Virus record (IMG/VR): IMGVR_UViG_3300035661_000046
Span: 1 to 64,000 of that record
Length of the DNA stretch: 64,000 nucleotides
DNA from: a virus
Taxonomy: Duplodnaviria; Heunggongvirae; Uroviricota; Caudoviricetes
Reading direction: 5' to 3' (one strand)
Below the pieces are notes generated by a model. The model saw only the letters and a list, made by a program, of their open reading frames with translations, had not been told where the DNA came from and made no database searches. A program made the position numbers and the translations under genes. This document shows positions 3,743-63,534 of the stretch, piece after piece; the first letter of the stretch is position 1, and every line of letters starts with the position of its first letter.

Positions 3743-3743
3743 T

Positions 3744-4049: not shown

Positions 4050-4073
4050 ATGTATCTTATACCCTAGAATGGC

Positions 4074-18467: not shown

Positions 18468-18468
18468 A

Positions 18469-18813: not shown

Positions 18814-18885
18814 TGTATTTTTCCTTTTAATAAGTGAGACAAAAAATAACAGCCGTTGTTACGCGGCTGTTCTATAGTACTATAA

Positions 18886-19789: not shown

Positions 19790-19803
19790 TTAAAGCCCCT
19801 AAG

Positions 19804-20274: not shown

Positions 20275-20315
20275 TTAGTCTCCTAACATAAAGTGAATTG
20301 TTTTCTTGCTATAGT

Positions 20316-20326
20316 TCTTATACCAA
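20316..20326 (-). promoter_or_regulatory. extended -10 promoter motif copy
   Basis: ttcttatacca about 45 nt upstream of the 20274 start. Confidence 0.5.
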
Positions 20327-20349
20327 AGAAACATTACATTATAGGAATG

Positions 20350-20380
20350 TAAAAAAAGCCGATGTGTAAATATCGGCTTT
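20350..20380 (-). terminator. rho-independent terminator (minus strand)
   Basis: Hairpin agccgat gtgtaaat atcggct followed by T7 in the minus sense, just downstream of 20403..20801. Confidence 0.65.
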
Positions 20381-20402
20381 AGGAGAAACTTAAGCTAGTT
20401 AC

Positions 20403-20801
20403 TTATTCGCAGTCGGACGCTTTACTATCTAAATATTCCTTATAAGCTTTCTTAATATGGTCCACAAGGGTGGGGTTCATATAGTCGTATTGATCAGGAA
20501 CATCTAAACAAACAAATTCTGTAAGGTCTGGAAAGCGGTTCATAAGCTCTAAACCCATCCACTGTTCCGCAACAATTACTTCATCCGCCCACTCAATTAG
20601 AACGTCCGTAACATCTATTAATGCATACTCTGACTCTAGCCCAGCTGCACGAGTGTTATAGTCGTATTCTTCCGCTAGAACACGAGACATAGTAGGAGAG
20701 CGCAGTAGTCCTGCGCTACAGACACAAAGGACTCGTTTGCTAGAACCTTGAAAATGATTGTGACAATTTGCTAATTTATTTCTCGAACTTGGTGTTGTCA
20801 T
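20403..20801 (-). CDS. low-molecular-weight phosphotyrosine phosphatase/ArsC-like phosphatase
   Basis: N-terminal P-loop C-x5-R-S (CVCSAGLLRSP) typical of LMW-PTP/arsenate reductase. 132 aa. Confidence 0.45.
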   Translation of the reverse strand: MTTPSSRNKLANCHNHFQGSSKRVLCVCSAGLLRSPTMSRVLAEEYDYNTRAAGLESEYALIDVTDVLIEWADEVIVAEQWMGLELMNRFPDLTEFVCLDVPDQYDYMNPTLVDHIKKAYKEYLDSKASDCE

Positions 20802-20879
20802 TTAAATATTCCTTTTACTGTCAGAAATCATTAACCTAACCTTGTCAAAGATAATGATGTGTAATACTAGTGTTGCAAG

Positions 20880-20964
20880 TGGTGCCCGAGGCCAGATTTG
20901 AACTGGCACGCTGTAAAGCAATGGTTTCTAAGACCATCGTGTCTACCAATTTCACCACTCAGGC
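20880..20964 (-). tRNA. tRNA-Leu (anticodon TAG), long variable arm
   Basis: Manual cloverleaf: acceptor GCCTGAG/CTCGGGC (one G-U), D-arm GTGAAATTGGTAGACAC, anticodon stem ATGGT/ACCAT with loop CTTAGAA, long variable arm, T-arm GCCAG TTCAAAT CTGGC, CCA encoded. 85 nt. Confidence 0.8.
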
Positions 20965-21057
20965 GTTACTGGTAATAAGGATTGGTGCTATTTCTAGAGT
21001 AGATCCACTGAGGGATCCTCCTAATTTATAACATCAATCCATATTACTATTAAAATG

Positions 21058-21128
21058 AGCGGGTGGGGAGAATCGAACTCCCATTTTAAGTTTGGAAAAC
21101 TTAAGCTCTACCATTAAACTACACCCGC
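21058..21128 (-). tRNA. tRNA-Gly (anticodon TCC)
   Basis: Acceptor GCGGGTG/CACCCGC, D-arm TAGTTTAATGGTAGAGC, anticodon loop TTTCCAA, T-arm GGGAG TTCGATT CTCCC. CCA not encoded. Confidence 0.75.
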
Positions 21129-21450
21129 GTCGATAATGCAAGGTAGCAAGTATCAACTTGCAAACTGCAACATATCAACAATAAGTTTTATCCCTCACCT
21201 GTTAAGCTCATTTATCCATCACAACAATATTCGACGAATCGATAGCGGGATAATGAGAAGGGTCAGAGATTCCATTAAGCTCGTTGAGGCTTGGCCTCAA
21301 CTATATGTGTGCTACCTTGCAGCCAGTGCCTCTTCCGTTATAGGAAACAGTAAAAAACCTATGGCCGAGGCTGTCGTAAGAGAGGGTACATGAACGATCA
21401 AGAACTTACCTCTCTCACGGTAGGACTGGCAACCTACTAAAACTATTATA

Positions 21451-22071
21451 CTACTCTAGAGCAGCTATTTCAATAGCTGTAGCACTTAACGCAACACAAA
21501 CTTTGTTACGATTAAGATCTGAGATGTCATCAGAGAGCTTAACTAAGGTGCGTTTTGCATCAACCTCAGCTTTCTTTACTAGTTCTATGAAAGACTCATC
21601 TAGAATGGCAATAGGATAACCAGCGCTACGTCCACTCATTAACGCATAAGAAGCTCTAGATGCATCAGCTACATTTACATCTAATCCTTCAAAAGTGCTA
21701 TAGGACATCTTACCTTCAGTGGAACCGGTAATCAGTTTATAAGCTGCCAAAGTTCTCTGAGCAGCATCTATTCTAGTCAGTTTACTTGTTATGCCATGCT
21801 CTAGATTGGCTGCAGCCACTTGGTCTTTTATGCGGACCAGGTCTGCCTGTAAATTAGTGATATTCGTAACAGCCTGAGCTGCTTCTAACGCATACTTAGT
21901 AACTAAAGCTTGAGAGTAGGAAGCCTTAGTAGTTACGTTGAAGTTAGTATCCTCTACTCGTTTTTTGAGTAGTGCAGTATTCTCAGAGATACTTGCGTTA
22001 ATACGCTCTACTACTTTGTGCCATCTATTTAAGGTTAAACTAATGCTTTTGCTTGGTGTCGTTGAATTCAT
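21451..22071 (-). CDS. hypothetical protein
   Basis: 206-aa ORF, Ala/Thr-rich and probably helical. Confidence 0.5.
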   Translation of the reverse strand: MNSTTPSKSISLTLNRWHKVVERINASISENTALLKKRVEDTNFNVTTKASYSQALVTKYALEAAQAVTNITNLQADLVRIKDQVAAANLEHGITSKLTRIDAAQRTLAAYKLITGSTEGKMSYSTFEGLDVNVADASRASYALMSGRSAGYPIAILDESFIELVKKAEVDAKRTLVKLSDDISDLNRNKVCVALSATAIEIAALE

Positions 22072-22109
22072 ATTTTATTCCTAAAATTTAAGTCAGAGTT
22101 GAATTGAGT

Positions 22110-22184
22110 TGGTGGGTCTGAGGAGTTTCGAAATCCTAACCCATGAATTATGAGTTCATTGCTCTTCCCTTGAGCTACAGACCC
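22110..22184 (-). tRNA. tRNA-Met (anticodon CAT; could equally be an Ile-lysidine tRNA)
   Basis: Acceptor GGGTCTG/CAGACCC, D-arm TAGCTCAAGGGAAGAGCA, anticodon stem ATGAA/TTCAT with loop CTCATAA, CCA encoded. The T-stem has one mismatch. Confidence 0.7.
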
Positions 22185-22193
22185 CTTGAAACT

Positions 22194-22270
22194 TGGTGCG
22201 CCCGACAAGAGTCTAACTTGTAACCCCCGATGTAGAAGATCGGTGCTCTATACAATTGAGCTACGGACGC
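22194..22270 (-). tRNA. tRNA-Arg (anticodon TCT)
   Basis: Acceptor GCGTCCG/CGGGCGC (one G-U), D-arm TAGCTCAATTGTATAGAGCA, anticodon stem CCGAT/ATCGG with loop CTTCTAC, T-stem ACAAG/CTTGT, CCA encoded. Confidence 0.75.
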
Positions 22271-22277
22271 ATATTTT

Positions 22278-22472
22278 TTATACTACAGAAAGAATCGGTC
22301 TAATATCTTCAACGTTCATTCCAGCTAACTCAGCTATTGCCTTAGCCTTATCAATGTTAGATACTCTGCTATTCCTAATCCAAGAATGTACTGCTCCATT
22401 GGAAACTCCTAGAAGGTTAGAGGTTTTTGTTACGCCGCCAATTTTTTCTACTGCTACTTTTATGTGGTTCAT
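22278..22472 (-). CDS. small Cro/YdaS-like HTH DNA-binding protein
   Basis: 64 aa; GVTKTSNLLGVSNGAVHSWIRN is a typical Cro/YdaS HTH. Confidence 0.5.
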   Translation of the reverse strand: MNHIKVAVEKIGGVTKTSNLLGVSNGAVHSWIRNSRVSNIDKAKAIAELAGMNVEDIRPILSVV

Positions 22473-22554
22473 TTGATAAATCTCCCTAGATGGTAGGGAT
22501 TATACTACTGCGTAAATAAAGATACAAGATATTTCTTTAGTAGCTTAAAAGTAG

Positions 22555-22590
22555 GCTAAAAATAAGGACGCACCAAGCATCCTTATTTGT
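22555..22590 (-). terminator. rho-independent terminator (minus strand)
   Basis: Hairpin aaggacgc accaa gcatcctt (one G-U) followed by a T-run in the minus sense, downstream of 22608..23048. Confidence 0.5.
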
Positions 22591-22607
22591 AACTACCTAA
22601 AAATTAC

Positions 22608-23048
22608 TTAAGCAGATACTGGTGCTGCTGGGGCTACTTCTGCAACTACTTCTGGTGCAACAAAGTCAGCAGGTACTTTTTGCAAGTCAGCTTTAGTATC
22701 ACGAGGAACTCCCATGCCTAAAGACTTAGCCAAAGGCAGAAAGTTTTGTGAAGCCAGACCATATTGAGTAGCACGTTTTACACCAGCCATCATATCTTTT
22801 AGACCAGCGATTTGTGATTCCAAGGTAGCAATGGTTGCAGCATTGCTTGTCAAGAATGCATCTTTGGTTGCCAACAGGTTAACGATCTCACCAGCCGCTT
22901 CATCAACAACTTTAGTACGGCGCTCAGTCATTTGACGATTCAAAGAAGTCTGGATGTCCAGAGGTAAGCCGCCGAAGTCAGCAACTTGCTGTTCGATATC
23001 TTTGTCAGCTAAACGAACTAAAGTAGCCATATCTATTGGAGCGTTCAT
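22608..23048 (-). CDS. hypothetical protein (coiled-coil, phasin/scaffold-like)
   Basis: 146-aa Ala/Gln/Leu-rich ORF. Promoter motif at 23144-23154. Confidence 0.45.
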   Translation of the reverse strand: MNAPIDMATLVRLADKDIEQQVADFGGLPLDIQTSLNRQMTERRTKVVDEAAGEIVNLLATKDAFLTSNAATIATLESQIAGLKDMMAGVKRATQYGLASQNFLPLAKSLGMGVPRDTKADLQKVPADFVAPEVVAEVAPAAPVSA

Positions 23049-23169
23049 GTGTATTTCCTTTTATTGAGTTAAAAAACTAAAAAATGAATTGACAGTTTTA
23101 CCTACTCTGACAAAGGTTAGCGAGAATGTATCTTCTCTAAATTTCTTATACCAAGTAAATTGACATTAT

Positions 23170-23373
23170 TTAATTATTAACGCAGAGTTCTCTCATTCTA
23201 GGTAATATCCTATTAAGCTTGGCTGTTTGTTCAACCCTACAAGAACTTATGTATACTGGATGAAAAGGTACTCCCGCATCAGACATATCTTCTGTATCCA
23301 GTACTGCAAATAAAGCTTTTACTAATCTTCTAAGTTCTTCAGGGTCATATTCTTCCAAATCTATATCATTCAT
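23170..23373 (-). CDS. hypothetical protein
   Basis: 67-aa acidic ORF. Confidence 0.35.
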   Translation of the reverse strand: MNDIDLEEYDPEELRRLVKALFAVLDTEDMSDAGVPFHPVYISSCRVEQTAKLNRILPRMRELCVNN

Positions 23374-24397
23374 AGGTAATCCTGTCTAAATAATCAAAGT
23401 ACCATTTACGAGCTTTATTACTAACTGCACTGCCTACGTCTTTAGGCTCTAACCCCGACTCAACTATAGTATCGGTTTCCTCTTTAAGAATATCATTGTA
23501 AACCCAACGAACAAAGTCTCCTGTGCTTTTAACGTCAATGGCACGGTTGGTTTCCTTCAAGAAGGCTATGCTTTGTAGAAGTCTATTCTCTGTTACACAT
23601 TTCTCTAAGAAAGCTTCTATGGAAGCTACCTTCTCTAAGTCTACTGCTGCTAGAGTCTTAACTTTAGATGAGGAGTGTTTTTCTCCTTTGACCTTAAACC
23701 ATAGTTCACTAGTCTCTAGCCCAGGAGTAACACAAGACCATACTATTCCTTCTCCTGTTCCTTCTATGCCAAATGCCTTGCCTACCGGACAGCACTCTTC
23801 TACTTTAGTAGTCAGTTCAATTAAGGTATTCTGAGACAAAGCAGGGTTTTCAAAGTCAATAGAAATTGAGAATGTAGGGAAGTCGTGTATTAAATACGTT
23901 GATCTCTCTGGATATGATTTCAAGTCAGGAAAGTCTGAAGGATTATACCAAGTATCTCCTGCCATTATCTTGAAGATTACAAACATCTTTTTAAGTTTAG
24001 AAATGGCTACTCCTGCTTGAATTGATCCTCCACACCATTCTCCAAATAGAGTTAGTGGGCCTCTATACTTTATGGTTGATGAAACAATAGATGCAATCTC
24101 ATAAAAGTGATCTCCGTAAGACCTACCCCAGAAAGCAAATCCAGCATTATCATTTTCTACAGATAGTATTCTTTCTCTACTTTGAAAAGTAAGTCCTCCT
24201 AAAGGTCCTATTACTACTGCGGCATTAGTACCATGAAGTTTTACTGTCCCCTCAAAGTCTAGAACAGGCAATTTCTTAGTACGGTCGTATTTAAGCTCTC
24301 CTGCACTATCTACCCCGATAAATCTTGTCCTGCGATCTACTTTCTGTATTACGGTTCTAAACTGCTCTATTGATGGAAATTTAATATGTTCTTGCAT
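23366..24397 (-). CDS. RNA ligase 2-like (Rnl2 family) nucleotidyltransferase
   Basis: Motif I KLHGTN (T4 Rnl2 has KIHGTN) about 55 aa from the N-terminus. Further motifs FGEWCG and KVKG. 343 aa against 334 aa for T4 Rnl2. Confidence 0.65.
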   Translation of the reverse strand: MQEHIKFPSIEQFRTVIQKVDRRTRFIGVDSAGELKYDRTKKLPVLDFEGTVKLHGTNAAVVIGPLGGLTFQSRERILSVENDNAGFAFWGRSYGDHFYEIASIVSSTIKYRGPLTLFGEWCGGSIQAGVAISKLKKMFVIFKIMAGDTWYNPSDFPDLKSYPERSTYLIHDFPTFSISIDFENPALSQNTLIELTTKVEECCPVGKAFGIEGTGEGIVWSCVTPGLETSELWFKVKGEKHSSSKVKTLAAVDLEKVASIEAFLEKCVTENRLLQSIAFLKETNRAIDVKSTGDFVRWVYNDILKEETDTIVESGLEPKDVGSAVSNKARKWYFDYLDRITYE

Positions 24398-24399
24398 AA

Positions 24400-25572
24400 T
24401 TAATCCTCTGTGATCATAGGTAAAAAATCTTCTCCGGGAAGCCCAAGAAAAGACATGCCTTGTTTTATAACAAACTCTTTATAGTTGTTTTCTCTTCCTA
24501 TGTATAAGTTCATCATCAACCCCATTACCTCATGGTGCTCGGTGTTAGCCTTAATAGCGTATTCTTTACGGCCTAGACCTTTATTCTCTTCATAGAAATC
24601 TTCTACGGTTTTTACTAAGTGATTGAACTTTGGAATAACCATATCTTCCATTTTAGAAAGCTCGGCTAGCACCCAAGCATCATCTGAGAAAGCAGAACGT
24701 ATATCATCTGATAACTCATTTACTACTAACGCAAATAATTTACTAGGGGTTTGAATAGAGTCTTTGGATTGGTGTAACTGAATGTAGGCTAGATTTTTGA
24801 CTTTAACTAAGTAGGAGGTAGAGTCTTCTCTCACCATCTCTATTACGTAACCCTCTCCTTTTTTCTCTTTGCGTATTTCAGAGACTAGTGTAGATTGGTC
24901 TACTTGATATAACCAAGTAGAGTCATATAAGTCCTGGTAATGTACAATCTGATCTATTAGTGTAGAGTACCTAGACATCATCAAATAATTACGAAGTTCA
25001 CTACCAAATAGTGTGCCTCCGGTAGTATGGTTTCTCACAGATAATATAGTTAACTTGTCCTCAGAATATGGAACCACTATGCGATTGGTAGGGGAAGTAT
25101 ATTCTAAGTTTACAGTAATACCCTCCTCCGCAGCTAGAAGTAATTCCGATTTAAATCGTCTGTTCTCTTCCAGGTCTAACCAAGTCATTGCCGCTATAGC
25201 TTGGCTAGAGAATAAGTCTGCTTTGGATTTAAGTCGTAGTTGACCTTTATATAAATAAGTAGAGATCAAGGAGCCATCAAGCTTGTCCATCATTGTACCT
25301 ACTATACACAGAGTGTGGTCTACACCACCTTCTTCATAATTAAAAAATTTCTGGGGAGGCAGGCTGACAAGAACGGGGTTATTAATATCAGTAACATTAA
25401 ACATTGTGCCTCGGCAATCTAAGGCTCCAGGCTTTTGGAACTGTGTCCAAGAGGCTAATCGGTAGTTGAAGATGTTATATAGCTGGTCTTCTAGTACCAC
25501 CTCTTTGCGGTAGAAACTTTCATCTTCATTTACTAAAGCTATTAACGTTTTATACATGTAAGCCTCTCTCAT
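24400..25572 (-). CDS. RNA ligase 1-like (T4 RnlA/gp63 family)
   Basis: Motif I DKLDGSL (T4 Rnl1 has KEDGSL) at about residue 96. 390 aa against 374 aa for T4 Rnl1. Directly adjacent to the Rnl2-like gene. Confidence 0.6.
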   Translation of the reverse strand: MREAYMYKTLIALVNEDESFYRKEVVLEDQLYNIFNYRLASWTQFQKPGALDCRGTMFNVTDINNPVLVSLPPQKFFNYEEGGVDHTLCIVGTMMDKLDGSLISTYLYKGQLRLKSKADLFSSQAIAAMTWLDLEENRRFKSELLLAAEEGITVNLEYTSPTNRIVVPYSEDKLTILSVRNHTTGGTLFGSELRNYLMMSRYSTLIDQIVHYQDLYDSTWLYQVDQSTLVSEIRKEKKGEGYVIEMVREDSTSYLVKVKNLAYIQLHQSKDSIQTPSKLFALVVNELSDDIRSAFSDDAWVLAELSKMEDMVIPKFNHLVKTVEDFYEENKGLGRKEYAIKANTEHHEVMGLMMNLYIGRENNYKEFVIKQGMSFLGLPGEDFLPMITED

Positions 25573-26000
25573 CTATGGTGCTTTGCTGTATACAACAAAG
25601 TTATTTCACTAGCGGTTACTGTATTTACCATCGTTATGTGTTTAGTAGGAACCCATCCTGTAGGGCCATCATCTATCTTAGTAAGATAATCCCCCATAGG
25701 TAACACGCATACTCCTTCAGGAATTCTATCTTCGTCCAAAGGTAGGTATACTATTTCCATGTTGTTATATCTAGGCATAATATGTAGATAGTGTAAGCCC
25801 ACTGGGTGTATAGTAACACCATCTTCTAAATAGTTAAGTATGTATTCATGTACGCTATTAATAGCAGTGACAAAGTCCTTTCCAAGATTTGAAAGGGTAT
25901 GGTTATATAACGCTGGTATTATAGCCGATATACTTCCAGTAGACGGCTCCTGCGTCATACAAATGTAATAGGAATATCTAGGGTCTTCGTTAAAGTTCAT
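25569..26000 (-). CDS. hypothetical protein
   Basis: 143-aa ORF. Confidence 0.45.
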   Translation of the reverse strand: MNFNEDPRYSYYICMTQEPSTGSISAIIPALYNHTLSNLGKDFVTAINSVHEYILNYLEDGVTIHPVGLHYLHIMPRYNNMEIVYLPLDEDRIPEGVCVLPMGDYLTKIDDGPTGWVPTKHITMVNTVTASEITLLYTAKHHR

Positions 26001-26074
26001 TCTTACTCCTTATTAAATGAAAATCCCAGATGATTAGTCTGGGATTGTGTGGTGGAAAGTATTTGATTCGAAAG

Positions 26075-26308
26075 TTACTCTTTATGTGCATCAGCCAGCT
26101 TAGCTAAACCTTCTCCTACTCCATCGGCAAAATTTCTGTTATGGCACTCAATAAGCATAACTTTTGCTTTTCTAATAGTAGCTGCTCGGTGTCTATTCTG
26201 TTCAGCACAGAACTCGGTTACAACGTTTCTAGTCGGGGTAGATAACTCATCATACACGGCTATCTTCTGATCTAGAATATGCAATATAAAACTTAGTTCT
26301 TCATCCAT
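26075..26308 (-). CDS. hypothetical protein
   Basis: 77-aa ORF. Confidence 0.4.
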   Translation of the reverse strand: MDEELSFILHILDQKIAVYDELSTPTRNVVTEFCAEQNRHRAATIRKAKVMLIECHNRNFADGVGEGLAKLADAHKE

Positions 26309-26523
26309 TACGACGTCACCACAAGTTTAAAATCTGGATTTAACCAATATGGGACTTGTTCATATAGTGGTTTTTGCGTGGGAGTTATCGGTCCAATGGT
26401 CGGATTAGACATAGTTAGGTTATGTACCTCTATTCGTAGGGCAGTAACCTCTGCTCTTAGCTTAGATAACTCCTGTTTCATATCATTGACTTCTTCAGTA
26501 TCAAATACTTTTTCGTGTGGCAT
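26308..26523 (-). CDS. hypothetical protein
   Basis: 71 aa; coiled N-terminal half. Confidence 0.4.
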   Translation of the reverse strand: MPHEKVFDTEEVNDMKQELSKLRAEVTALRIEVHNLTMSNPTIGPITPTQKPLYEQVPYWLNPDFKLVVTS

Positions 26524-26541
26524 GTAATACTCTTTCTATAT

Positions 26542-26619
26542 TGGCACTCCCGTAGTGAATCGAACACCACTCAGTCTGGTTTGGAGCCAAACTCGCCTCG
26601 CCTTGGAACATGCGGGAGC
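26542..26619 (-). tRNA. probable tRNA-Trp (anticodon CCA) with an atypical, extended D-arm
   Basis: Acceptor GCTCCCG/CGGGAGT (G-U at 1:72), anticodon stem TTTGG/CCAGA (one G-U) with loop CTCCAAA, T-arm TGGTG TTCGATT CACTA, CCA encoded. The D-arm region (TGTTCCAAGGCGAGGCGA) does not fold canonically. Confidence 0.45.
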
Positions 26620-26679
26620 ATTGTTTAAGTCTTCTTACTAATGCTACTATGGAGCTGGCTCCATTTAAACTCCTAATTC

Positions 26680-26754
26680 TGGCAGTGGATACAGGGATTG
26701 AACCTGTGCATGACGGGATCAAAACCCGTTGCCTTTCCTCTTGGCTAATCCACA
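26680..26754 (-). tRNA. tRNA-Gln (anticodon TTG)
   Basis: Acceptor TGTGGAT/ATCCACT (1:72 mismatch), anticodon stem ACGGG/CCCGT with loop TTTTGAT, T-arm ACAGG TTCAATC CCTGT, CCA encoded. Confidence 0.7.
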
Positions 26755-26759
26755 CCTGT

Positions 26760-27056
26760 TCAAACTAATTTAGCAAAACGTCTAACTAAAAACATTAACC
26801 ATTTAGGGGCGTAAATTATAGCTGTAACCTGTGCCGGTAATACCTTCACGCCATTCATTCTAACGTGAAAAAACTCACTATAAGCATCCTGTGTTAATGA
26901 GAATACCGCCTCTGTTTCCGACCGGTTTAATTCATAAAATGCACAGTTAGTTATATACTGCCCCTTCTCCTCGGGGGTAGTCGTTGGTTTATAAACTAGG
27001 TCTATGATGTGTTTAGCACTAAGCCTATCAGTAAACGGTATTTTTTTCTCTATCAT
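26760..27056 (-). CDS. hypothetical protein
   Basis: 98-aa ORF. Confidence 0.45.
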   Translation of the reverse strand: MIEKKIPFTDRLSAKHIIDLVYKPTTTPEEKGQYITNCAFYELNRSETEAVFSLTQDAYSEFFHVRMNGVKVLPAQVTAIIYAPKWLMFLVRRFAKLV

Positions 27057-27244
27057 AAGGTTCTCATTACTAGACTATAGGAAAAGTAATAGCATAAGAC
27101 ATTCAAACACTCCCTTGATTATTACTAATTAATTATAGTGGAAGTATAGATAACGATCATAGTGGACGAATGTAGCTGCTTTACCAGCAGCTACACCTCA
27201 TTAACGGTCTACACTTCCTTCTAAACTATAAGGATTGTTACATT

Positions 27245-27469
27245 TTACTCGAATGCGCTATTATCAGCAAGGCTATCTTCTAAGTCATGTATATCCCCTA
27301 GTATTCTAATAGGCTCTGCTCTACCTACTACATATACCTCTATTACTGGTCTGAATCTACCACCTTCTTTTATAGGAGTCCCACACACAAGGTGTGTAAT
27401 TTGTTTAGCCATAATTGCTACAGAGGTAGGTATCGCCGTATCTGCTAGTACATATCCAATAATTTTCAT
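27245..27469 (-). CDS. hypothetical protein
   Basis: 74-aa ORF. Confidence 0.4.
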   Translation of the reverse strand: MKIIGYVLADTAIPTSVAIMAKQITHLVCGTPIKEGGRFRPVIEVYVVGRAEPIRILGDIHDLEDSLADNSAFE

Positions 27470-27492
27470 AGTCTATTCCTTTATTCAAACAT

Positions 27493-27524
27493 TAAAAAAC
27501 CCAGAGAAGTTTCCTAGTCTGGGT
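27493..27524 (-). terminator. rho-independent terminator (minus strand)
   Basis: Hairpin cccaga ctaggaaacttc tctggg followed by T6 in the minus sense. It sits downstream of the tRNA-like gene and upstream of 27245..27469. Confidence 0.65.
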
Positions 27525-27695
27525 ATCATTAGTTGCAAGTTAAAGTTGAACCTCTTTACTCCGAGTAATACCCTCCAATGTCCAGTGGATAATCTTGTGA
27601 GGGCCAAAACTGATTATTTAAGAGTGAGAGGTTCATGCTTTTTATTTTAATACACTTTTTTACGTTTTTCAACCATTTGTGAAAATAGTTTCAAG

Positions 27696-27768
27696 TGCCC
27701 TCAGAACGAATTGAACGCTCGACCTCTTGATTATAAATACAAGTGCTCTACCGCTGAGCTATGAGGGT
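27696..27768 (-). tRNA. aberrant tRNA-like gene (18-nt anticodon arm giving an 8-10-nt loop; A1:C72 mismatch; no encoded CCA)
   Basis: Canonical D-arm TAGCTCAGCGGTAGAGCA, variable loop AGGTC, T-arm GAGCG TTCAATT CGTTC and a 6-bp acceptor. The anticodon arm CTTG-TATTTATAAT-CAAG is one nt too long. A perfect extended -10 (TGGTATAAT) lies about 15 nt upstream. Confidence 0.5.
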
Positions 27769-27782
27769 TGCTCTACTTAGTT

Positions 27783-27792
27783 ATTATACCAG
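27783..27792 (-). promoter_or_regulatory. extended -10 promoter (minus-sense TGGTATAAT) driving the tRNA-like gene
   Basis: + strand tattatacca, whose reverse complement tggtataata matches the TGnTATAAT consensus exactly. It lies between the NAMPT stop and the tRNA-like 5' end. Confidence 0.55.
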
Positions 27793-27795
27793 TTA

Positions 27796-29199
27796 CTAGA
27801 AGATAATGGAACTATTTTTCCTAACCGCATCAAAAGAGACACTCTTAACGAAACCTGGACGGTATACCTGAGTAAGCATATCCCTACCTCGGTTCTTCCC
27901 GGGTGTGATTCTATCACTATAGAAGCCAATACGATCATCCAAGAAAGTAGAAACTATTCCTCGTTTAGATGCCTTACCAGGATCAGTTTTAGGATCCTTG
28001 TACACATCTACTTCTACCCCATTCACGGTTACACTAGAGCATTTCATAGCCCACTTGAAGGTATCACGGTCTAAACGCTGCAGCAAGGCTCCGCCCATAC
28101 CAAAGGCTATATTATCAATAGAGAACATCTCTTTCAGCATCGCAGTTAAGATTTCTTCGATAGAGTCCATATTAACACCATCTCCTTGAATAATACGCAC
28201 GTTATTAAGTACCTTATAACCCTTAGAGTTTATGGTGTACCCGAATGACTTCTGTAAAGAGCGCAAGCAATACATAACCATGCTCTTTGGATTTCCTGAG
28301 TCGGGACGAAGTACTACTGTAGCACCAGAGTCAATAACCTCTTGTTTTAAATCACGACCCCAGATGACGTCTACTGCGTTATACATGTCGTAGGCATCTA
28401 CTACTACAGCAAAGTAAGCCCCAGGAACACCAAACTGCTTAATCATGTTAGAATAAGCTGCCTGCTCATAAGGCCGACCCCAGCTTGTTATAGTCGAGTG
28501 CTCTGCTGCAGGAATACTACCGGAAACAAAACCTTTAGCGTCATAGTTTCTGCGAAGCCAAGGTGTTGCTGCAATAGTATCAGAACCCATGAAGTTAACT
28601 AAGTGTGCTGCACCACCAACCTGGGATGTTTCATAGGATGAACAACCGCGACTTCCGAAGTCATGTAACTTGAAATTAATCTGACTGTCAGGATCATCAC
28701 TAGAAATAACAAGCCCGCGATAAATCATATCTTTAATCGTCTTACTTACTGTAGAGACAGTGCTGCCATACCAGATAGCTCGTAGTATCTGAGTTTCATA
28801 ATGGCCTGGTGCCCAGAATACTTTAGGGTCGATAGAATCTATACGAGCTACTGGCAAGTTAATAGGTACGTTAATACCTTCTTCTATAGCATGTATAGAA
28901 ATAGGTGCAAAACCACCATGCTCTTTAACAATGTATTCCCAAGCATCCTTCTTGAAAGGTACACCTTGCATTGCAAATTCTTCTGCAGCTTCCTCTACGT
29001 TGTCGAGCGTCGCTGGAGTAGAGAGATACTCCTTGATGTAACCTTGAAGACCAAACATTTGAGTCTTGTAAACACCTTGGATGGTTGAGCCTCGAGCTTC
29101 TACATAGGAACTCATGCTCGTTGTCCCTTTAGGGAACTGGTCTGGGTGACTTGGTTTATAGCTATCCGTATCCAAGATTGGATTGTAAGTTTGTTTCAT
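27796..29199 (-). CDS. nadV: nicotinamide phosphoribosyltransferase (NAMPT/NadV)
   Basis: N-terminus MKQTYNPILDTDSYKPSH is the hallmark of NadV/NAMPT (NPIL.TDSYK.SH). 467 aa is typical for the family. Confidence 0.85.
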   Translation of the reverse strand: MKQTYNPILDTDSYKPSHPDQFPKGTTSMSSYVEARGSTIQGVYKTQMFGLQGYIKEYLSTPATLDNVEEAAEEFAMQGVPFKKDAWEYIVKEHGGFAPISIHAIEEGINVPINLPVARIDSIDPKVFWAPGHYETQILRAIWYGSTVSTVSKTIKDMIYRGLVISSDDPDSQINFKLHDFGSRGCSSYETSQVGGAAHLVNFMGSDTIAATPWLRRNYDAKGFVSGSIPAAEHSTITSWGRPYEQAAYSNMIKQFGVPGAYFAVVVDAYDMYNAVDVIWGRDLKQEVIDSGATVVLRPDSGNPKSMVMYCLRSLQKSFGYTINSKGYKVLNNVRIIQGDGVNMDSIEEILTAMLKEMFSIDNIAFGMGGALLQRLDRDTFKWAMKCSSVTVNGVEVDVYKDPKTDPGKASKRGIVSTFLDDRIGFYSDRITPGKNRGRDMLTQVYRPGFVKSVSFDAVRKNSSIIF

Positions 29200-29211
29200 A
29201 TTATAGAACCC

Positions 29212-30267
29212 CTATAAAAAGTAATTGATGATATGAAGGTGATCTTCATAAAATTTGTGACTTAATTCTGGCAAAGCTGAGAATGGAACCCAGAATGCCT
29301 TCTTTGCATCGTCGCTACCTTTAACCTTGGGTAGCCCAGGAGTTAGGTCAGAGCCATCTAACCTAAATAAGAACGCATGAGTAATAGTTCTACCTCTAGA
29401 AGATCGGCCTGGAGAATCGAATACTTTAGAATCTCCTTTATTGGCATGATCTAGAACAGGTAGAGGGACTTTTAAACGAGTCTCCTCTCTTAACTCACGT
29501 AAAGCACAAGAGTATAACGTTTCGTTAGGATCAATGAAGCCCCCAGGTAAGGCATACAGTCCTTTGCCGGGAAATCCTCCTCGCTCTATTAAAAGAACAT
29601 GGCCATTCTTTATTACTACTGCGTCTGTTGTTACAAAGATTGGAGTATGTGGAGAACCTGCCCAAGCTTCTTTATATTCTCTAATAAAGGAGTCTTCTTC
29701 AAGCAGTAGATAGTACTCTTCTGAAAAAGCAAACTCTCTTAGAAAAGCTTCTGTACCCGTAGGTACTCTACTATAAACCGCAGCCTCACGCATTTTAGAA
29801 AGAGTATTTTCGTTAAAATACATACTCCGTAAAAGGCTGGCATTTATATCACCTGCTAGGCTACCAACTTCAACGTGAGGCCCCCATTGAGGGAATTCTA
29901 GTAAATATCCTGTATCTTCTTTTAGATGGCCTATTAGTTTTGGATTCTTAGCCTCAAGCAGTGAAACTACGTCGTTAACCTCCTCTTGGACTGATTCCAA
30001 CCATCGGTTGTTGGCATACAGGTAATCCTTTACTGCAACAAAGAATACTCTACTAGCAGAGTCCGGATCTAGAGAGCTAGTTATCATATTGATTCGCTCT
30101 TCATCACTAAAGGGATTTTTTAGACTCCTAGAGGACCTAGAGGACCCTAATACTATTATCACCTTGTCTGCTATATTCAGGGCCTCAAGCATAGTCGCCA
30201 TATGACCATTATGAAAGATCTGAAATCTTCCGATCATTATTAAAACTTCGTGTTTCTTATTTGACAT
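29212..30267 (-). CDS. natV: bifunctional NMN adenylyltransferase / Nudix hydrolase (NadM-Nudix, NatV-like)
   Basis: The N-terminal nucleotidyltransferase carries H-x-G-H (GRFQIFHNGH). The C-terminal Nudix box is GGFIDPNETLYSCALRELREETRL. Directly downstream of nadV, as in vibriophage KVP40. Confidence 0.8.
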   Translation of the reverse strand: MSNKKHEVLIMIGRFQIFHNGHMATMLEALNIADKVIIVLGSSRSSRSLKNPFSDEERINMITSSLDPDSASRVFFVAVKDYLYANNRWLESVQEEVNDVVSLLEAKNPKLIGHLKEDTGYLLEFPQWGPHVEVGSLAGDINASLLRSMYFNENTLSKMREAAVYSRVPTGTEAFLREFAFSEEYYLLLEEDSFIREYKEAWAGSPHTPIFVTTDAVVIKNGHVLLIERGGFPGKGLYALPGGFIDPNETLYSCALRELREETRLKVPLPVLDHANKGDSKVFDSPGRSSRGRTITHAFLFRLDGSDLTPGLPKVKGSDDAKKAFWVPFSALPELSHKFYEDHLHIINYFL

Positions 30268-31724: not shown

Positions 31725-31990
31725 TATTCATACCCCGTTATTTCACGAAGTTCATAACCAGGATCACCCTCCTCGAAAGTAGGAGCAGTAGCCTTAGCTG
31801 TGTTAGTTACGTATAACCAACGTGCAGTACGTGTACTTTGTAAAGCACAACCCTCTACGGTTGCAGGAATAAAATTACAATTACCGCACCCACACTTTCT
31901 AGTTCTGAGAAACTTCTTATTATTAGCCAAATCCTCAAAATACTCTAGAGGGTACAAGCTATCTGTAAAGTCTTCTACTTCTTGTTCCAT
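31724..31990 (-). CDS. small Cys-rich (zinc-binding) protein
   Basis: CGCGNC...C motif; 88 aa. Overlaps the start of the RuvC-like gene. Confidence 0.4.
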   Translation of the reverse strand: MEQEVEDFTDSLYPLEYFEDLANNKKFLRTRKCGCGNCNFIPATVEGCALQSTRTARWLYVTNTAKATAPTFEEGDPGYELREITGYE

Positions 31991-32563
31991 TATCTATTTC
32001 CTATTTTATTTATCATTGTTAATAAATCTTCTTGCGAAGAACCCCGATGTACTACTACCAAGTCTCCCCAGTTTGGCCCTATCTCTGCTTCAACTCCAAT
32101 TGGTAGGTCTAGCCAGTCAAAGGTTTCAACAGGGTAGTCTTCCATGTAATAGAAGGCTGTCTCTAGGACTTCAGCTGCGTGTTGTAGAGGACATTCTATT
32201 TCAATTGAGTCATAGACGGTACAGATGCACTTTGCACCAAACTTCTTTATAGCGTTATTTAAAGCTGTAAACACCACCAACCCTAATGTCGACGATGTAG
32301 ACTGTACCCTAACATTCTGAGAATTTCTTAATGCAGCATTATACACTGCAGTCTTCTTATACATTGGCAAAGTACCAAACTCCATCTTACGCTGTGCAAA
32401 AGGAGTATACACAAACTGGTTGTGCTTTGCCATTGCATGTGCATCTTCTACATATTTCTTAATAAGAGGGTATGTATCGAAGTACATGTTAATTAAAGTC
32501 TGAGCTTCTTCTTTAGAGATTCCCAGGTTCATTGCGACTCCTGCTACAGAGGAGCCGTATAAG
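31990..32563 (-). CDS. family A DNA polymerase, polymerase subunit, exon 2 (C-terminal part incl. motif C)
   Basis: GSSVAGVAMNLGISKEEAQTLINMYFDTYP corresponds to Pol I [37 protein letters not shown] is the motif C (HDE) region. The frame is open upstream of the tracked Met back to the predicted 3' splice site at 32563. Confidence 0.7.
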
Positions 32564-32827
32564 CACTTAGTCTACTACTTTCGTAATAGAGTGGACTATA
32601 CCATTACCCTTTTCTAAAACACGCTTTTACGAGGGTATTCGCCGTATTATACCTAGTTAAAGGTATCGCAGCAAGATCTGTTCTAGATCTTCTGTCAGTC
32701 TCTGAACCATTTATACCAATCCCTTGGTATTCTGGCTGCTGATTGCCATACCTAGTATCTAGGGTTAGGGTTCCAGCAATTGAGCGAATTTTTAATACAG
32801 CATTACTACCGTATGGCACCTAAGTTA
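32564..32827 (-). mobile_element. group I intron (ORF-less, 264 nt) in the DNA polymerase gene
   Basis: It interrupts Pol A between motif B and the following helix. Predicted P1: exon ggcaU paired with intron GUGCC (U-G at the splice site). The intron starts taacttag and ends ...ctaagtG. It shares four conserved blocks with the rtcB intron, including a P7-like AUAGUCC element. Confidence 0.65.
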
Positions 32828-33783
32828 ATGCCGAATGTTAACGCTTTTGCTGCTTGTCTATAACCCTTATACTCCTTATATAAGGGATGTCCGGGATTAT
32901 CGACGATAGAGATAAACTCATCGTAGTCTAACCTTCGCATTGCACTAGCCGAGAAGGAGTGGAAATCCTTACCTTCTTCAATAGCCTTAAGTAAAGTAGG
33001 ATCCTTACATAGCGCTCCTAGAATCTTTACTTCGGCACTAGAGAAGTCTAAAGCAATAAACACATTGCCATCTGCTACCTTAAAGCATCTACGTACATTA
33101 TACCCATGCTTAGGTCTAGGTAACTGAGTTAAGTTAGGGTTATCACCAGTTATACGGAAACTACTAGTTCCGTGTAGGTTATAAGAAGGATGTACTCTAC
33201 CATCAGGCTTAACGTGGTCTTCTACGTAAGTCTTAATAAAAGTACGGTGAGCACTAGCAATGTCATTGCGTTTTGCTATATCTGCCAAGTAAGGGATTCT
33301 AGCAGATTTAACCAAGGCGGCTAATGCATCACCATCAGTAGAAGGAGATCCTGTCTTAGTTAAGAAAGGTGGAGTCAATCCTAACTCTCCGTATAAGAAA
33401 TCGCCTAGTGCAGCTCCAGAGTCTAAGTCTACCGGATGACCAATCGCAGTAAAAATAGAATGTTCCAAAGAAGCAATCTCTGCTTCCATTTGACGATTCA
33501 TTTGTCTATTAAGCTCGATGTCATACTCAATGCCATTGAGTTCTAAGTCACAGATAAACTCAAAAGCTGGCATTTCGTATTTGCGTATTGCTTCTAGTAT
33601 AGAAGGAATCTTACCCTTTGTTAATTTCCCATGAGTAGAAGTTACATACAGGGGTTGCTCAATAATTCTGGGAAAAGTAGCAGCCAGTATTTCTGAGGTT
33701 GTAATGCAGTCTATACCCGCGTACAGTAGCAAGTCTTCAACTGGATAATCTTCATATGTGTTATATATCGGTTTTTGTTCCAT
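32828..33783 (-). CDS. family A DNA polymerase, polymerase subunit, exon 1 (palm/fingers incl. motifs A and B)
   Basis: Motif A ALDFSSAEVKIL (DYSQIELR-like) and motif B RQAAKALTFGI(LYG). The tracked ORF reads into the intron and stops after ...FGINLGAIR. Confidence 0.7.
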
Positions 33784-34123
33784 TGGCTTTTTTATGCTCC
33801 TGTACTATTTCCTGAAACCTATCTAAAATTAAAGCGTCTCTAGTAGCCAAGTTGCTTAGCTCATTTTCCAACTCAGAAAGCATCTCTTCGGTATCTTCAG
33901 CTAAACCCATTAAAGTAGGCTCCATAAATCTAAGAGTATCTAGCTGAGCTTTAATACCACTAGCCTGAGCTAGGATATGTGCACTCTCCACTATGATGTT
34001 CTCTGCTTCTCTACTACCCAAGCTTTTTACTAAAGCAAGGATTACTTCATGAGGATCAATATCATCTTCTCCTGCTGTTACCTCTACTGCGTCCTCTACT
34101 TCTACTGGTTTAAACTTACTCAT
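33761..34123 (-). CDS. hypothetical acidic protein lying between the exonuclease and polymerase genes
   Basis: 120 aa; ATGA-type overlap with the exo gene stop, and a 23-nt overlap with the pol start. Confidence 0.45.
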   Translation of the reverse strand: MSKFKPVEVEDAVEVTAGEDDIDPHEVILALVKSLGSREAENIIVESAHILAQASGIKAQLDTLRFMEPTLMGLAEDTEEMLSELENELSNLATRDALILDRFQEIVQEHKKANGTKTDI

Positions 34124-35366
34124 CTATCTCATCCTCACTTTCATTATTATTAACTAACTTAGTTAATTTTGGTAGTTTATCTTCATAACCCCCAAGACCT
34201 GTATGTGGTATCCAATCCCATACAGCTCGTTTAAGACCATAGTTCTTATTAAGTCCAGAGTTTATGTTATGAAGAATTAGCATCGTGTCGAACACGATTC
34301 CTTGTATTCTAACACCGGTACAGCACATAGTGTATAAAACATCAAACTTTATGTTATGCCCGACTTTCTTAATGTCAGGGTTTAGTAGAATCTTTGCAAT
34401 ATATTCCCAGGCTATGTGTGGATGGAACCACGTATTTTCTCTATGCCACAGAGGTATTACTAAAGCTTCAATATACCCCTCTGCCGTTCTATACCCAAAC
34501 TGAGCAGTTATTATCTTTGCTGAGTTAGAGAAAGGATCTAGGCCGGTAGTTTCTAAGTCGAAGCTTATTACAGAAGTACTAGGCAGGTTTGAAAGAATAT
34601 TAGTGAAGGTAACTACCTCACTTATAGATCTGGCTATTTTGATATGTTTAGAATACCTCTCTAACGCATCTGCCAGTTTAGGAACCACCAGAGCTCCTCT
34701 AGCTAGCCTACTAGCCTTCTCGAAGTCCCGATCTATCACTTCTAAGAAATCCGTCCCCCACATCTGTCCTGATGAGTTCTGACGTATCATAGTAGTTACT
34801 TTAGGATGCAAAGTGATTACCACGTTAGAGACAAAGTCATTACTGTGTATTTCTCCTCGGTTAGCCGTGTTACTCACTGTACTAAACCCAAGTTCCTTAG
34901 TCACCGCCGTGGTTAGACTTATTATTACTTTTGGGTTAGCCCTACGTATCTCTTCTAGTAAGTACGGGGCACATCTTCTAAGCACTGTCTGAGCGGGGGC
35001 TTTACCCTTGTTTATATCTAAGCCTTTTATCTCGCACTTAGTCAAGTTAGTAGTACGGTAAGAAAGCTTTGAAAAATGCTTAATAGCTAAGTAGTTAATA
35101 ATGTTACTGTGGATTTGGTTTATTTCATCTCCCGTGTAGAAACCCTCAGTAAAGGCTCGGTGATCCTGTATTATTAAGATGTCTACGGGAGTGTGATTGA
35201 GAAGTACTAGGTCAGGAGTTTTACATTTCAGTGTACACACTTTGTTACAGTAGCTAGTAGAGATCTGAGAGAAATCCTCTTTCTGAATTATTGCTGATTT
35301 TACCGCAGGAGTTATCTTAGGTCTGTTGTATAAATCTGATAAAGGTAAATCTATTAATTTTGCCAT
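34116..35366 (-). CDS. 3'-5' proofreading exonuclease protein (DnaQ-like domain of a split family A polymerase)
   Basis: Exo I VISFDLETTGLDP, Exo II GHNIKFDVLY and a YxxxD-like region near the C-terminus. It is encoded as a separate ORF from the polymerase domain. Confidence 0.65.
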   Translation of the reverse strand: MAKLIDLPLSDLYNRPKITPAVKSAIIQKEDFSQISTSYCNKVCTLKCKTPDLVLLNHTPVDILIIQDHRAFTEGFYTGDEINQIHSNIINYLAIKHFSKLSYRTTNLTKCEIKGLDINKGKAPAQTVLRRCAPYLLEEIRRANPKVIISLTTAVTKELGFSTVSNTANRGEIHSNDFVSNVVITLHPKVTTMIRQNSSGQMWGTDFLEVIDRDFEKASRLARGALVVPKLADALERYSKHIKIARSISEVVTFTNILSNLPSTSVISFDLETTGLDPFSNSAKIITAQFGYRTAEGYIEALVIPLWHRENTWFHPHIAWEYIAKILLNPDIKKVGHNIKFDVLYTMCCTGVRIQGIVFDTMLILHNINSGLNKNYGLKRAVWDWIPHTGLGGYEDKLPKLTKLVNNNESEDEIDE

Positions 35367-62051: not shown

Positions 62052-63012
62052 CTATCCTTTTACGCACATCACTTGTTTTAGAGTATGAAGCACTGTTACT
62101 AAGTCATCCTGATTACTCATTACTGTCTCAATATCTTTATATGCCCCGGGAGTTTCATCTATTACACTTTCGTCTTTCCTACATTCAACACCTGCTGTAG
62201 CTAGCTTGTGATCCTCTATGGTAAATGTAGCTCTAGCTTTTGCACGGCTCATTGCCCGTCCAGCTCCATGAGAGCAAGAGCAGAAGGAGTCTATATTACC
62301 CTTACCTTCTACTATATAAGATCTAGTCCCCATGCTGCCTGGAATTATACCTAAGTCCCCATTACGAGCGCGTACTGCACCTTTACGAGTTATCCATAAA
62401 TTCCTACCAAAGTGATTTTCCTTAGCTACGTAATTATGATGACAATTAATAGCCTCTTTGGTTACTGTGAACTCCTTAGGAATGTGTCTGGATATTGCAG
62501 CTAATACTGAAGCCAGCATTGCCTTTCTATTCTCTAAAGCGTAGTCTTGAGCCCAATGAACAGCCTCGATATAATCATTGAAGTCCTCGTCCCCTTCTGG
62601 TAAGTAAGCTAGATCACCATCTGGTAAGTTGATGTAATACATCTCCATCTTCTTCTTGGCCTTCTCAATGAAGTAATTCCCAATCATATTACCGATACCT
62701 CTGGAGCCAGAGTGTAACATCACCCATACAGAGTCTACTTCATCCAGACAAATTTCTATGAAGTGGTTACCTGAACCCAAGGTACCCAATTGACGACTAG
62801 CCTTACCGATACCATCCCTGGCTATATCTGGATGTTTACCTAGAATTGGTCCTAAGTCTTGCAATAGAGAAAATCCTTGATAGTCTTTATGAGAACCACC
62901 TGTCCCCATAGGTATGTCTCGTTCTATTTGTTTACGAATTGTTTCTAATGAATCTGGTAGGTCGGCCGCAGTTAAACTTAGGCGTACTGCTACCATTCCA
63001 CATCCTAAATCG
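62052..63012 (-). CDS. rtcB: RtcB RNA ligase (3'-phosphate/5'-OH), exon 2
   Basis: In frame upstream of the tracked Met the sequence reads DLGCGMVAVRLSLTAADLPDSLETIRKQIE, matching E. coli RtcB DIGCGMNALRTALTAEDLPENLAELRQAIE. Later conserved blocks include MLHSGSRGIGN and CSCSHGAGR. Confidence 0.8.
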
Positions 63013-63316
63013 CGTTATTCCATTATTTCTAATGGCGTGGACTATACCATCTCTAAGGTCACTGAGTTTTATAGTCTCTACCTTAGGCTCGCCGTGTTAA
63101 TACTACACCTACCATACTTATATGAAGTATACCGTATTCCTAAATGAAAGGTAAGCAGGTAGGGTGTAGTATTCTGCACAAGTGTCTATAAAACACAGTG
63201 CAAGTCTCTGAACCATTTGACAATATCACTACTGCCTCTGGCTGCTGATTGCCCTCGACTATACGTTAGGGTTTCCAGCAATTGAGCGAGTTTTAAAGGG
63301 GCCGATTTTTTAGTTA
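63013..63316 (-). mobile_element. group I intron (ORF-less, ~304 nt) in rtcB, homologous to the DNA polymerase intron
   Basis: It separates ...IIPAAVGV from DLGCGM... (the two are contiguous in RtcB homologs). Predicted P1: exon aggggU paired with intron GCCCCU (U-G at the splice site). The intron starts taactaaaaaatcg and ends in G. It shares the blocks gtggactatacca, gtctctgaaccattt, ctggctgctgattgcc and agggtt.ccagcaattgagcga with the pol intron. Confidence 0.65.
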
Positions 63317-63534
63317 ACCCCTACTGCTGCCGGTATTATAGCTTTATCCGTAGCTATAACTGTTCCAATAGTACTTCCCTTACCTCCGTGAACGTCAGGC
63401 ATAACTGATACTTGTTTGTAGATAAAAGGAAGCCTGGACAAATTCTTAAGCTGAGTTAAAGCTTCATCTTCTATAGTATCTGTCCAGATTTTTATTGGTT
63501 TACCACCGTCTACTATTACTTGTTTAATACTCAT
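63317..63534 (-). CDS. rtcB: RtcB RNA ligase, exon 1
   Basis: LPFIYKQVSVMPDVHGGKGSTIGTVIATDKAIIPAAVGV aligns with E. coli RtcB MPFIFKHIAVMPDVHLGKGSTIGSVIPTKGAIIPAAVGV. Confidence 0.8.

Follow-up and report, generated by a model that had tools for sequence, protein, structure and literature searches.

This work describes a group I intron of 304 nt that splits one gene for the RNA ligase RtcB (rtcB) on the minus strand of a phage genome (Caudoviricetes). The DNA analyzed, referred to here as the window, is the whole stretch of 64,000 nt at positions 1 to 64,000 of IMG/VR virus record IMGVR_UViG_3300035661_000046. The intron occupies 63013..63316 (minus strand), is of subgroup IA type, and lacks an open reading frame (ORF); it was identified with the Rfam Intron_gpI model (RF00028), a minimum-free-energy (MFE) fold, covariation among its relatives, and the stop codons in its reading frames. 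Judged from sequence, it is very likely an intact, splicing-competent, endonuclease-less intron within a functional rtcB gene.

Two minus-strand ORFs of the ORF list within 62052..63534 are the RtcB exons: the first (63310..63534) encodes 74 amino acids (aa) ending in IIPAAVGVN, and the second (62052..62996) encodes 314 aa beginning with MVAVRL. The original prediction, made from the letters alone, held that both belong to a single RtcB and that the end of exon 1, together with a DLGCG frame just upstream of the second ORF's Met, recreates the conserved AAVGVD(I/L)GCGM block. Both statements were borne out. Against the Pfam RtcB profile (PF01139), the exon 1 ORF covers positions 1 to 47 and the exon 2 ORF positions 52 to 426. 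Upon removal of 63316..63013, the resulting protein of 392 aa matches the profile from end to end (positions 1 to 426 of 426, 422.6 bits, E value of 2.9e-126), a check that the prediction had itself proposed. Exon 1 (63317..63534, minus strand, 218 nt), delimited using the ORF list, Pfam, and derivation of the splice site, starts at Met1 and ends after the second base of the Val73 codon, and a Shine-Dalgarno-like GAGGGA lies 8 nt upstream of its ATG. Exon 2 (62052..63012, minus strand, 961 nt including the stop codon), delimited using Pfam and a structure-guided alignment, opens with the C that completes Val73 and then encodes the metal ligands Asp74 and Cys77, followed by the NHF, HSGSRG, HHN, and SHGAGR motifs. 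The spliced coding sequence of 1179 nt keeps the frame; its junction reads GGG GU|C GAU UUA, giving AAVGV|DLGCGM in the protein.

The site of insertion lies within the active-site coding region. Alignment of the spliced RtcB with those of P. horikoshii (1uc2; Pho) and T. thermophilus (2epg) is gap-free across the junction; against 1uc2, Asp74, encoded by the first complete codon of exon 2, takes the place of Pho Asp95, and Cys77 that of Pho Cys98. Counterparts of every metal ligand (Asp95, Cys98, His203, His234, and His329 in Pho numbering) and of the nucleophile His404 are present. The intron site is thus 1 nt before the codon of the metal ligand Asp95; in Pho, Asp95 and Cys98 coordinate the two catalytic metals, and replacement of the Cys by Ala abolishes all steps of the reaction (PMC9745838). 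Each exon is intact: neither frameshift nor stop interrupts it, and all catalytic residues are kept. As empty-site controls, we used 80 RtcB relatives from IMG/VR and the top 40 phage records, none of which is interrupted; at the site, the intronless relatives read VGVDIGCG in 80/80 cases and AAVGVDIGCG in 74/80. In practical terms, the locus is probably one functional rtcB rather than two gene fragments. Default pipelines call two genes, and this miscall recurs in the window, in contigs of sibling phages, and in deposited Bacillus phages.

Only one pair of boundaries satisfies both the reading frame and the rules of group I splicing: an exon 1 end at U63317, an intron spanning 63316..63013, and an exon 2 start at C63012. 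The ORF-free interval of about 304 nt (63013..63316) proposed earlier was accordingly exact, as was the claim that it ends in G, the 3′-terminal omega-G being G63013. Stops occur in 3/3 frames of the interval, and its longest ORF is ≤33 aa. The intron begins U AAC UAA, which places an in-frame stop (63312..63310) two codons past the junction. With stops in every frame, the insert is not the in-frame, translated insertion that defines an intein. Splicing after U63316 was considered and rejected, as the intron would then have to end in C63012.

Pairing of the internal guide sequence with both exons agrees with these boundaries. The guide, AAAUCG|GCCCCU (63297..63308, minus strand), was located by a base-pair check. 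In P1, exon AGGGGU (63322..63317) forms 6 bp with guide GCCCCU (63302..63297), including the U63317·G63302 wobble at the splice site, just as had been drawn in the original prediction. In P10, guide AAAUCG (63308..63303) forms a further 6 bp with exon 2 CGAUUU (63012..63007), contiguous with P1. P10 fixes the 3′ splice site independently. A side observation concerns the exon strand of this helix: the window RtcB reads VGVDLGCG, where DIGCG is found in the 80 intronless relatives without exception and in the other intron-bearing copies. With the Leu75 codon UUA (63006..63008, minus strand), pairing to the A-rich guide gives a P10 of 6 bp instead of 4 bp. This may reflect exon-intron coadaptation or coincidence.

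The Rfam Intron_gpI model aligns over its full length (1 to 253) at 63019..63347 (minus strand) with 49.8 bits, corresponding to E values of 1.3e-11 in a search of 701 nt and 1.1e-9 in a sensitive scan of the whole 64-kb window. The unconstrained MFE fold (−87.4 kcal/mol; z = −4.3) was matched in stability by 0 of 100 shuffled sequences and recovers P3, P4, P5, P6/P6a, P7.1, P7.2, P8, and P9. With this covariance-model match, P10 (absent from the original prediction), the covariation described below, and a protein motif restored in frame, the assignment to the self-splicing-type group I introns is well founded.

Element by element, and with pairing values taken from an alignment of 14 intron sequences, the RNA can be laid out as follows on the minus strand. 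The region 63229..63278, defined by the Rfam alignment and helix definition, holds the 5′ strand of P3 (CUCGC-U-C), P4 (UGCUGG/UCAGCA), and P5/P5a; pairing reaches 100% in P3, with 3 compensatory pairs, and 92% in P4. P6 (CCA/UGG) and the P6a hairpin (GGCAGUA-GUGA-UAUUGUC) follow at 63201..63229 by helix definition and MFE fold, with P6a being 99% paired with 4 compensatory pairs. The 5′ strand of P7, G[A]GACU (63191..63196; Rfam alignment and helix definition), pairs with AGUCC at 63043..63039, and 5/5 of its pairs are invariant; its bulged A is typical of the guanosine-binding helix. The AUAGUCC element described earlier as P7-like belongs to P7 through its AGUCC portion, which is the 3′ strand. 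Between P7 and the 3′ strand of P3, at 63081..63190, the MFE fold and covariation place P7.1 (UGCAC..GUGCA), in which compensatory changes are seen, and a long P7.2 hairpin (ACUACACCCUACC..GGUAGGUGUAGU), whose loop is the location of an endonuclease ORF in relatives. The presence of P7.1 and P7.2 at this position assigns the intron to the subgroup IA type. The region 63039..63081 (Rfam alignment and helix definition) comprises the P3 3′ strand (GGCGAG), P8 (CUAAGGU..ACCUUAG, with inner GAG/CUC; 96% paired, 5 compensatory pairs), and the P7 3′ strand. Finally, the P9 hairpin (CCAUUA-GAAA-UAAUGG) and the 3′ tail AAUAACG, which ends in the omega-G, occupy 63013..63035 according to the Rfam alignment, helix definition, and MFE fold.

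Homologous introns occur at the same rtcB site in other genomes. A sensitive blastn search of the intron against deposited phages retrieved Bacillus phages CM1 (LC785692), vB_BsuM-Goe20 (OM728301), and vB_BsuM-Goe27 (OM728304) at ~82% identity in two pieces, and the matches fall within genes for a "tRNA splicing ligase" or "RtcB" that are split likewise. In addition, the junction pattern GGGGTTAACTAA(N0-6)TCGGC was scanned in viral, metagenome, and genome collections with a tblastn filter; the 8 + 112 + 40 matches were mostly due to chance, and 17 loci with a split rtcB beyond CM1 and Goe20 were retained. These include eight Bacillaceae genomes (the Bacillus cereus group, B. thuringiensis [lyx16], B. 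mycoides, B. changyiensis, Gottfriedia, Niallia, and two Bacillus sp.), two IMG/VR contigs, and two contigs that are nearer to the window by RtcB (L126 and L242). Exon 2 could be placed in 13 of the 17 loci; together with CM1 and Goe20, these yielded 15 relatives with a complete intron sequence. In all 15, the residue at which exon 1 stops and exon 2 continues is identical. When Rfam was run on the relatives, L089 and CM1 were missed and the first Goe20 intron scored only 28 bits, as an ORF interrupts the model in these copies.

For the covariation analysis, 14 of the 16 intron sequences were aligned after excision of their ORFs, with helices defined on the window sequence. Helix cells were paired in 92.1% of cases, compared with 34 to 39% when the 3′ partners were slid by 1 to 3 columns, and 27 pairs were changed on both sides, compared with 2 to 10 in the slid registers. 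None of 500 shuffles reached the observed values for pairing or compensation. Because MAFFT misaligned the guide region, P1 and P10 were checked sequence by sequence. Across the 16 introns, P1 tracks the exon: GUUGGGGU is accompanied by guide GCUCCAAC, GUCGGGGU by GCUCAGAC, and the AGGGGU of the window by GCCCCU. This comparative evidence strongly suggests that the RNA structure of the intron is under selection.

The closest comparison comes from two sibling contigs, L245 (Logan SRR11723145_244547) and L246 (JGI 3300035181 Ga0373632_0004042), which represent either the phage of the window or a sibling with 97% identity. Each carries the same 304-nt intron and has its rtcB annotated as two genes, of 74 aa and 314 aa. 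Over rtcB, one contig matches the window exactly; the other, at ~97% identity, differs at 2/304 intron positions, both in the apical P7.2 hairpin, versus 28/1179 exon positions (2.4%), with both exons open. A further candidate for a split gene, P0029 (313 aa), was rejected, as it is merely cut by the contig end.

Several points weigh against an intact and active intron. The covariance search suggested in the original prediction returned a highly significant match to the full model, but its score is 0.2 bits below the curated gathering cutoff of 50, so that a default scan at the gathering threshold omits the rtcB intron; the shortfall is attributable to the ~85-nt insertion of P7.1/P7.2 and to the absence of P2. 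Besides lacking P2, the intron has a short P5, and the alignment of P9 among relatives is poor, with 64% of cells paired. In the sibling, the low intron divergence relative to the exons is based on small counts. Splicing competence itself is a property that we infer from sequence. Lastly, a terminal A replaces the G in ten Bacillaceae members of the family (L081 [CM1], L086, L089, L114, L137, L203, L214, L218, L227, and L239). In these copies (..GUA|CGAU), the A is needed to restore VGV|DIGCG, and P7 is the same as in copies ending in G; a G 2 nt upstream would give VG-Y-DIGCG and only with a 5′ splice site that is not U·G. Natural omega-A splicing, decay, or noncanonical choice of the site may each account for this. 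Some of the ten may consequently be impaired, and membership in the family is by itself no guarantee of activity. The puzzle leaves the window copy, with its G63013, unaffected.

These points bear most directly on the possibility that the intron has decayed within a dead gene, such that splicing is lost and rtcB is a pseudogene in two pieces. Loss of the endonuclease gene, the marginally subthreshold Rfam score, and the many relatives with a terminal A, which suggest that decay occurs in this family, would all fit, and the Rnl1-like and Rnl2-like ligases of the phage might make RtcB dispensable. We nevertheless consider decay unlikely. The exons have accumulated neither frameshift nor stop and conserve every catalytic residue; the core helices, P1, P10, and the omega-G are all intact in the window copy; and in a sibling with 2.4% exon divergence, the exons are open and the two intron changes are confined to a peripheral loop.

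If the intron is indeed active, the following course of events would apply. The rtcB gene would be transcribed as a single minus-strand pre-mRNA, in which the intron folds into the P3-P9 core, and both the exon 1 end (P1, with its U·G pair at the cleavage site) and the exon 2 start (P10) are base-paired to the guide AAAUCGGCCCCU. An external guanosine would attack after U63317, and the freed 3′-OH of exon 1 would then attack after the terminal G63013. The ligated mRNA (..GGG GU|C GAU UUA..) would encode the complete RtcB of 392 aa with AAVGVDLGCGM. Ribosomes on unspliced RNA would stop two codons into the intron (AAC UAA), yielding only the 74-aa fragment and being kept off the catalytic core.

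The history of the intron can be read from its endonuclease gene. Homologous Cys/His-rich ORFs of ~165 aa (CxxC .. FDFHH .. CxxCH), with weak similarity to Pfam HNH (E value of 0.016), lie in the P7.2 loop in CM1, Goe20, L126, and L242. In L208 and L226, just a C-terminal remnant (..LCSNCH) is left, and the ORF is entirely gone from intron forms of 272 to 304 nt, including that of the window. A tblastn search of the relatives' endonucleases against the window found no homologue; one weak match to the CM1 endonuclease at 22878..22931 was dismissed, as it sits in a 146-aa ORF without Cys or His.

Distribution among near-identical phages is uneven. While CM1 bears the intron, sibling phages with ~90 to 95% identical rtcB exons have either an empty site or an insert. 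In phage Z3, the site was read as GTC GGT GTT GAT ATC (VGVDI) and is intronless; Bc431v3, Bcp1, Hobo, BM15, and Kioshi are likened to Z3 by their intronless gene span. In JBP901, BCP8-2, and BMBsp2, the gene span is ~940 nt longer. The RtcB of JBP901 (L244, KJ676859, 18575..20698) comprises 708 aa and contains an intein, inserted in frame at DIG|C..GN|CGM; this point immediately precedes the metal-bridging Cys and is three codons downstream of the intron position. The insert sequence was read for JBP901, and BCP8-2 and BMBsp2 are likened to it by gene span only. The window copy and those of Bacillaceae share ~70% identity in the intron core but only 30 to 36% in the host RtcB proteins. In the window's own lineage, L245 and L246 are the sole close relatives and both bear the intron, while the next relatives (≤70% identity) are all without it. 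Sporadic presence, a core more similar than the host proteins, and forms with the ORF, with a remnant of it, and without it are the signature of a spreading homing intron that sheds its endonuclease. From these sequence comparisons, we infer a horizontally spreading homing lineage, in which a selfish intron would home to this rtcB site by means of the HNH-like endonuclease encoded in the P7.2 loop and later shed that gene. The window copy, its endonuclease gene gone, would persist because it splices and not through mobility of its own.

The rtcB gene of Goe20 (L082, OM728301) holds a second group I intron (locus 3526..3773, Rfam score of 72.2 bits), located just before the GGNHFIE metal-ligand motif. 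An endonuclease of a different type is encoded there by a 261-aa ORF (3863..4648), and this rtcB is divided into three exons.

The original prediction also placed expression of the ligase under RNA-level control. In such a regulatory scheme, conditional splicing (responding to guanosine nucleotide level, translation, or infection stage) would gate a tRNA-repair ligase. Circumstantially, guanosine is a required cofactor of group I splicing and GTP is used by RtcB (PMC9745838), the early in-frame stop would couple the fate of the precursor to translation, and the intron has been kept without its endonuclease and is well conserved in the sibling. The distribution argues otherwise: the intron turns up sporadically among unrelated rtcB genes and is missing from sibling phages that are nearly identical, 80 of the 80 closest RtcB relatives are intronless, and a sister intron in the DNA polymerase gene (polA) of the same genome points to opportunistic insertion. 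Early stops, furthermore, are common to group I introns of bacteria and phages in general (PMC2504315). We therefore regard RNA-level control as unsupported and regulation by the intron as very improbable. Insertion at the most conserved codons, presence and absence in near-identical phages, and the coexistence of endonuclease-bearing and endonuclease-deleted forms make the pattern that of a selfish homing element. Little credence attaches to a broader proposal, namely, that one rtcB-specific, HNH-driven lineage has crossed very different hosts (Bacillus Herelleviridae and Bacillaceae prophages as well as this low-GC large phage) and, in addition, that the endonuclease-free window copy is retained because guanosine-dependent splicing was co-opted to tune a GTP-dependent tRNA-repair ligase against host tRNA nucleases. 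As for a naturally split RtcB, in which polypeptides of 74 aa and 314 aa assemble and the spacer is merely intron-like, the exon 2 ORF does have an ATG with AGGA at 6-nt spacing and gene callers do annotate two RtcB genes in the sibling contigs and Bacillus phages, but the 314-aa product would be without Asp74 and Cys77, ligands of both metals (with the Cys-to-Ala variant dead; PMC9745838), the ATG and AGGA are the conserved G-C-G-M codons and hence not an independent start signal, and the spacer constitutes a complete group I ribozyme that shows covariation and whose boundaries restore the motif exactly, so that this explanation is scarcely credible.

A megablast search of the locus against deposited phages gave no match, so the phage itself is absent from that collection. 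The window primase is 33 to 36% identical to those of the ~180-kb Vibrio phages D69, D181, and D148 and of Salmonella phage Arash, and the nearest full-length RtcBs (~65 to 70% identity) are from Burkholderiales and their phages, all uninterrupted; RtcB and primase are thus closest to those of phages of Burkholderiales, Vibrio, and Salmonella. The phage to which the window belongs is large, of lytic type, and undescribed. Genes in the window include those for ribonucleotide reductase, NAD-salvage enzymes, a DNA ligase, Rnl1-like and Rnl2-like RNA ligases, and seven tRNAs. Many of these form a dense module for RNA repair and NAD metabolism at 17340..30267 on the minus strand: a DNA ligase (17340..18467), the seven tRNA genes (20880..27768), the Rnl2-like RNA ligase (23366..24397), the T4 Rnl1-like RNA ligase (24400..25572), NAMPT (27796..29199), and NMNAT/Nudix (29212..30267). 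RtcB is additional to this module, which brings the genome to three RNA ligases of different chemistry.

The same genome harbors a second group I intron without an ORF (32564..32827, minus strand, Rfam score of 67.9 bits), which sits within motif B of a family A DNA polymerase (polA) between ORFs at 32806..33783 and 31990..32532. Splicing after U32828 and G32564 would give AKALTFGI|LYGSS, with exon GGCAU pairing with guide GUGCC in P1. Upstream of this intron, the polymerase is divided further (region 33761..35366, minus strand) into ORFs at 34116..35366 (416 aa, exonuclease side) and 33761..34123 (120 aa), followed by that at 32806..33783; a natural split, a frameshift, or a further insertion may account for this extra division.

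No description of an rtcB group I intron turned up in literature searches, and a survey of introns in B. cereus-group prophages, whose hosts include tape-measure, terminase, and tail-tube genes, does not list rtcB (PMC2504315). The earlier remark that an rtcB intron is unusual is nonetheless unsupported, for the same intron is found at the same codon in CM1, Goe20, Goe27, eight Bacillaceae genomes, and contigs, and RtcB is a frequent intein host (PMC4760082). The companion remark, that phage group I introns classically reside in genes for nucleotide metabolism or polymerases, is to be set against the many other gene classes in which they are known (PMC2504315). Publicly deposited genomes of phages and bacteria already contain the rtcB intron, unannotated, and its anatomy follows the textbook.

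Of the systems available for comparison, the rtcB introns of Bacillus phages and Bacillaceae share with that of the window the insertion point (GGGGU|UAACUAA..UCGG.. at the 5′ end, with exon 2 beginning C/U GAY), a P3-P9 core with P7.1/P7.2 and no P2, and a P1 and P10 formed from the same guide region. They differ in that CM1 and Goe20 carry the ~165-aa HNH-like ORF in P7.2, which the window copy lacks, and in that many Bacillaceae copies end in A. Unlike these copies, the window has a guide fitted to its own exons (GCCCCU and a 6-bp P10). The metagenomic loci L126 (OFRO01001000.1) and L242 (JAZDEO010000039.1) have the same site and intron family and are the nearest intron-bearing RtcBs, at 59/49% and 56/38% identity, respectively (exon 1/exon 2). 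The 11-nt exon 1 end of L126, GCAGTAGGGGT, is identical to that of the window, and L242 has the last 7 nt in common along with the same guide GGCCCCU. Both differ from the window in having kept the endonuclease ORF (755 and 832 nt), which in L126 reaches into the P3′ and P8 strands.

The classical phage introns of subgroup IA are those of T4 td, nrdB, and nrdD, of the SPO1/SP82 DNA polymerase, of Twort, and of B. cereus-group prophages (PMC2504315). Like the window intron, they are small, sporadically distributed ribozymes with P7.1/P7.2 and an early in-frame stop, inserted in conserved genes at conserved codons; a homing endonuclease ORF in a peripheral loop is optional. The window intron differs in having neither P2 nor an ORF, and its host encodes an RNA ligase, whereas the hosts named in the sources consulted are nucleotide-metabolism, polymerase, recA, or structural genes. 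An RNA-repair ligase thereby joins the list of phage genes colonized by group I introns. Our understanding of how such introns work is unchanged, as this is a familiar selfish element and not a new mechanism. The polA intron (32827..32564, minus strand) resembles the rtcB intron in its near-identical 5′ core (P3-P4-P6-P7), its UAACU start, its lack of an ORF, and its location in a catalytic motif, and differs in host gene, guide, 3′ half, and higher Rfam score.

RtcB inteins, such as that of JBP901 and those of archaea and bacteria (PMC4760082), are likewise selfish and enter the same active-site motif; unlike the window intron, they are in frame, are removed at the protein level, and involve no ribozyme. 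Insertion at the most invariant codons is a habit of group I introns and inteins (PMC2504315), and RtcB is known to host inteins often (PMC4760082). The metal-binding motif VGVD(I/L)GCGM of RtcB is a hotspot for introns and inteins alike, and the 16 introns at this one site, with the endonuclease present, reduced to a remnant, or absent, provide a natural series for following gain, decay, and spread across hosts.

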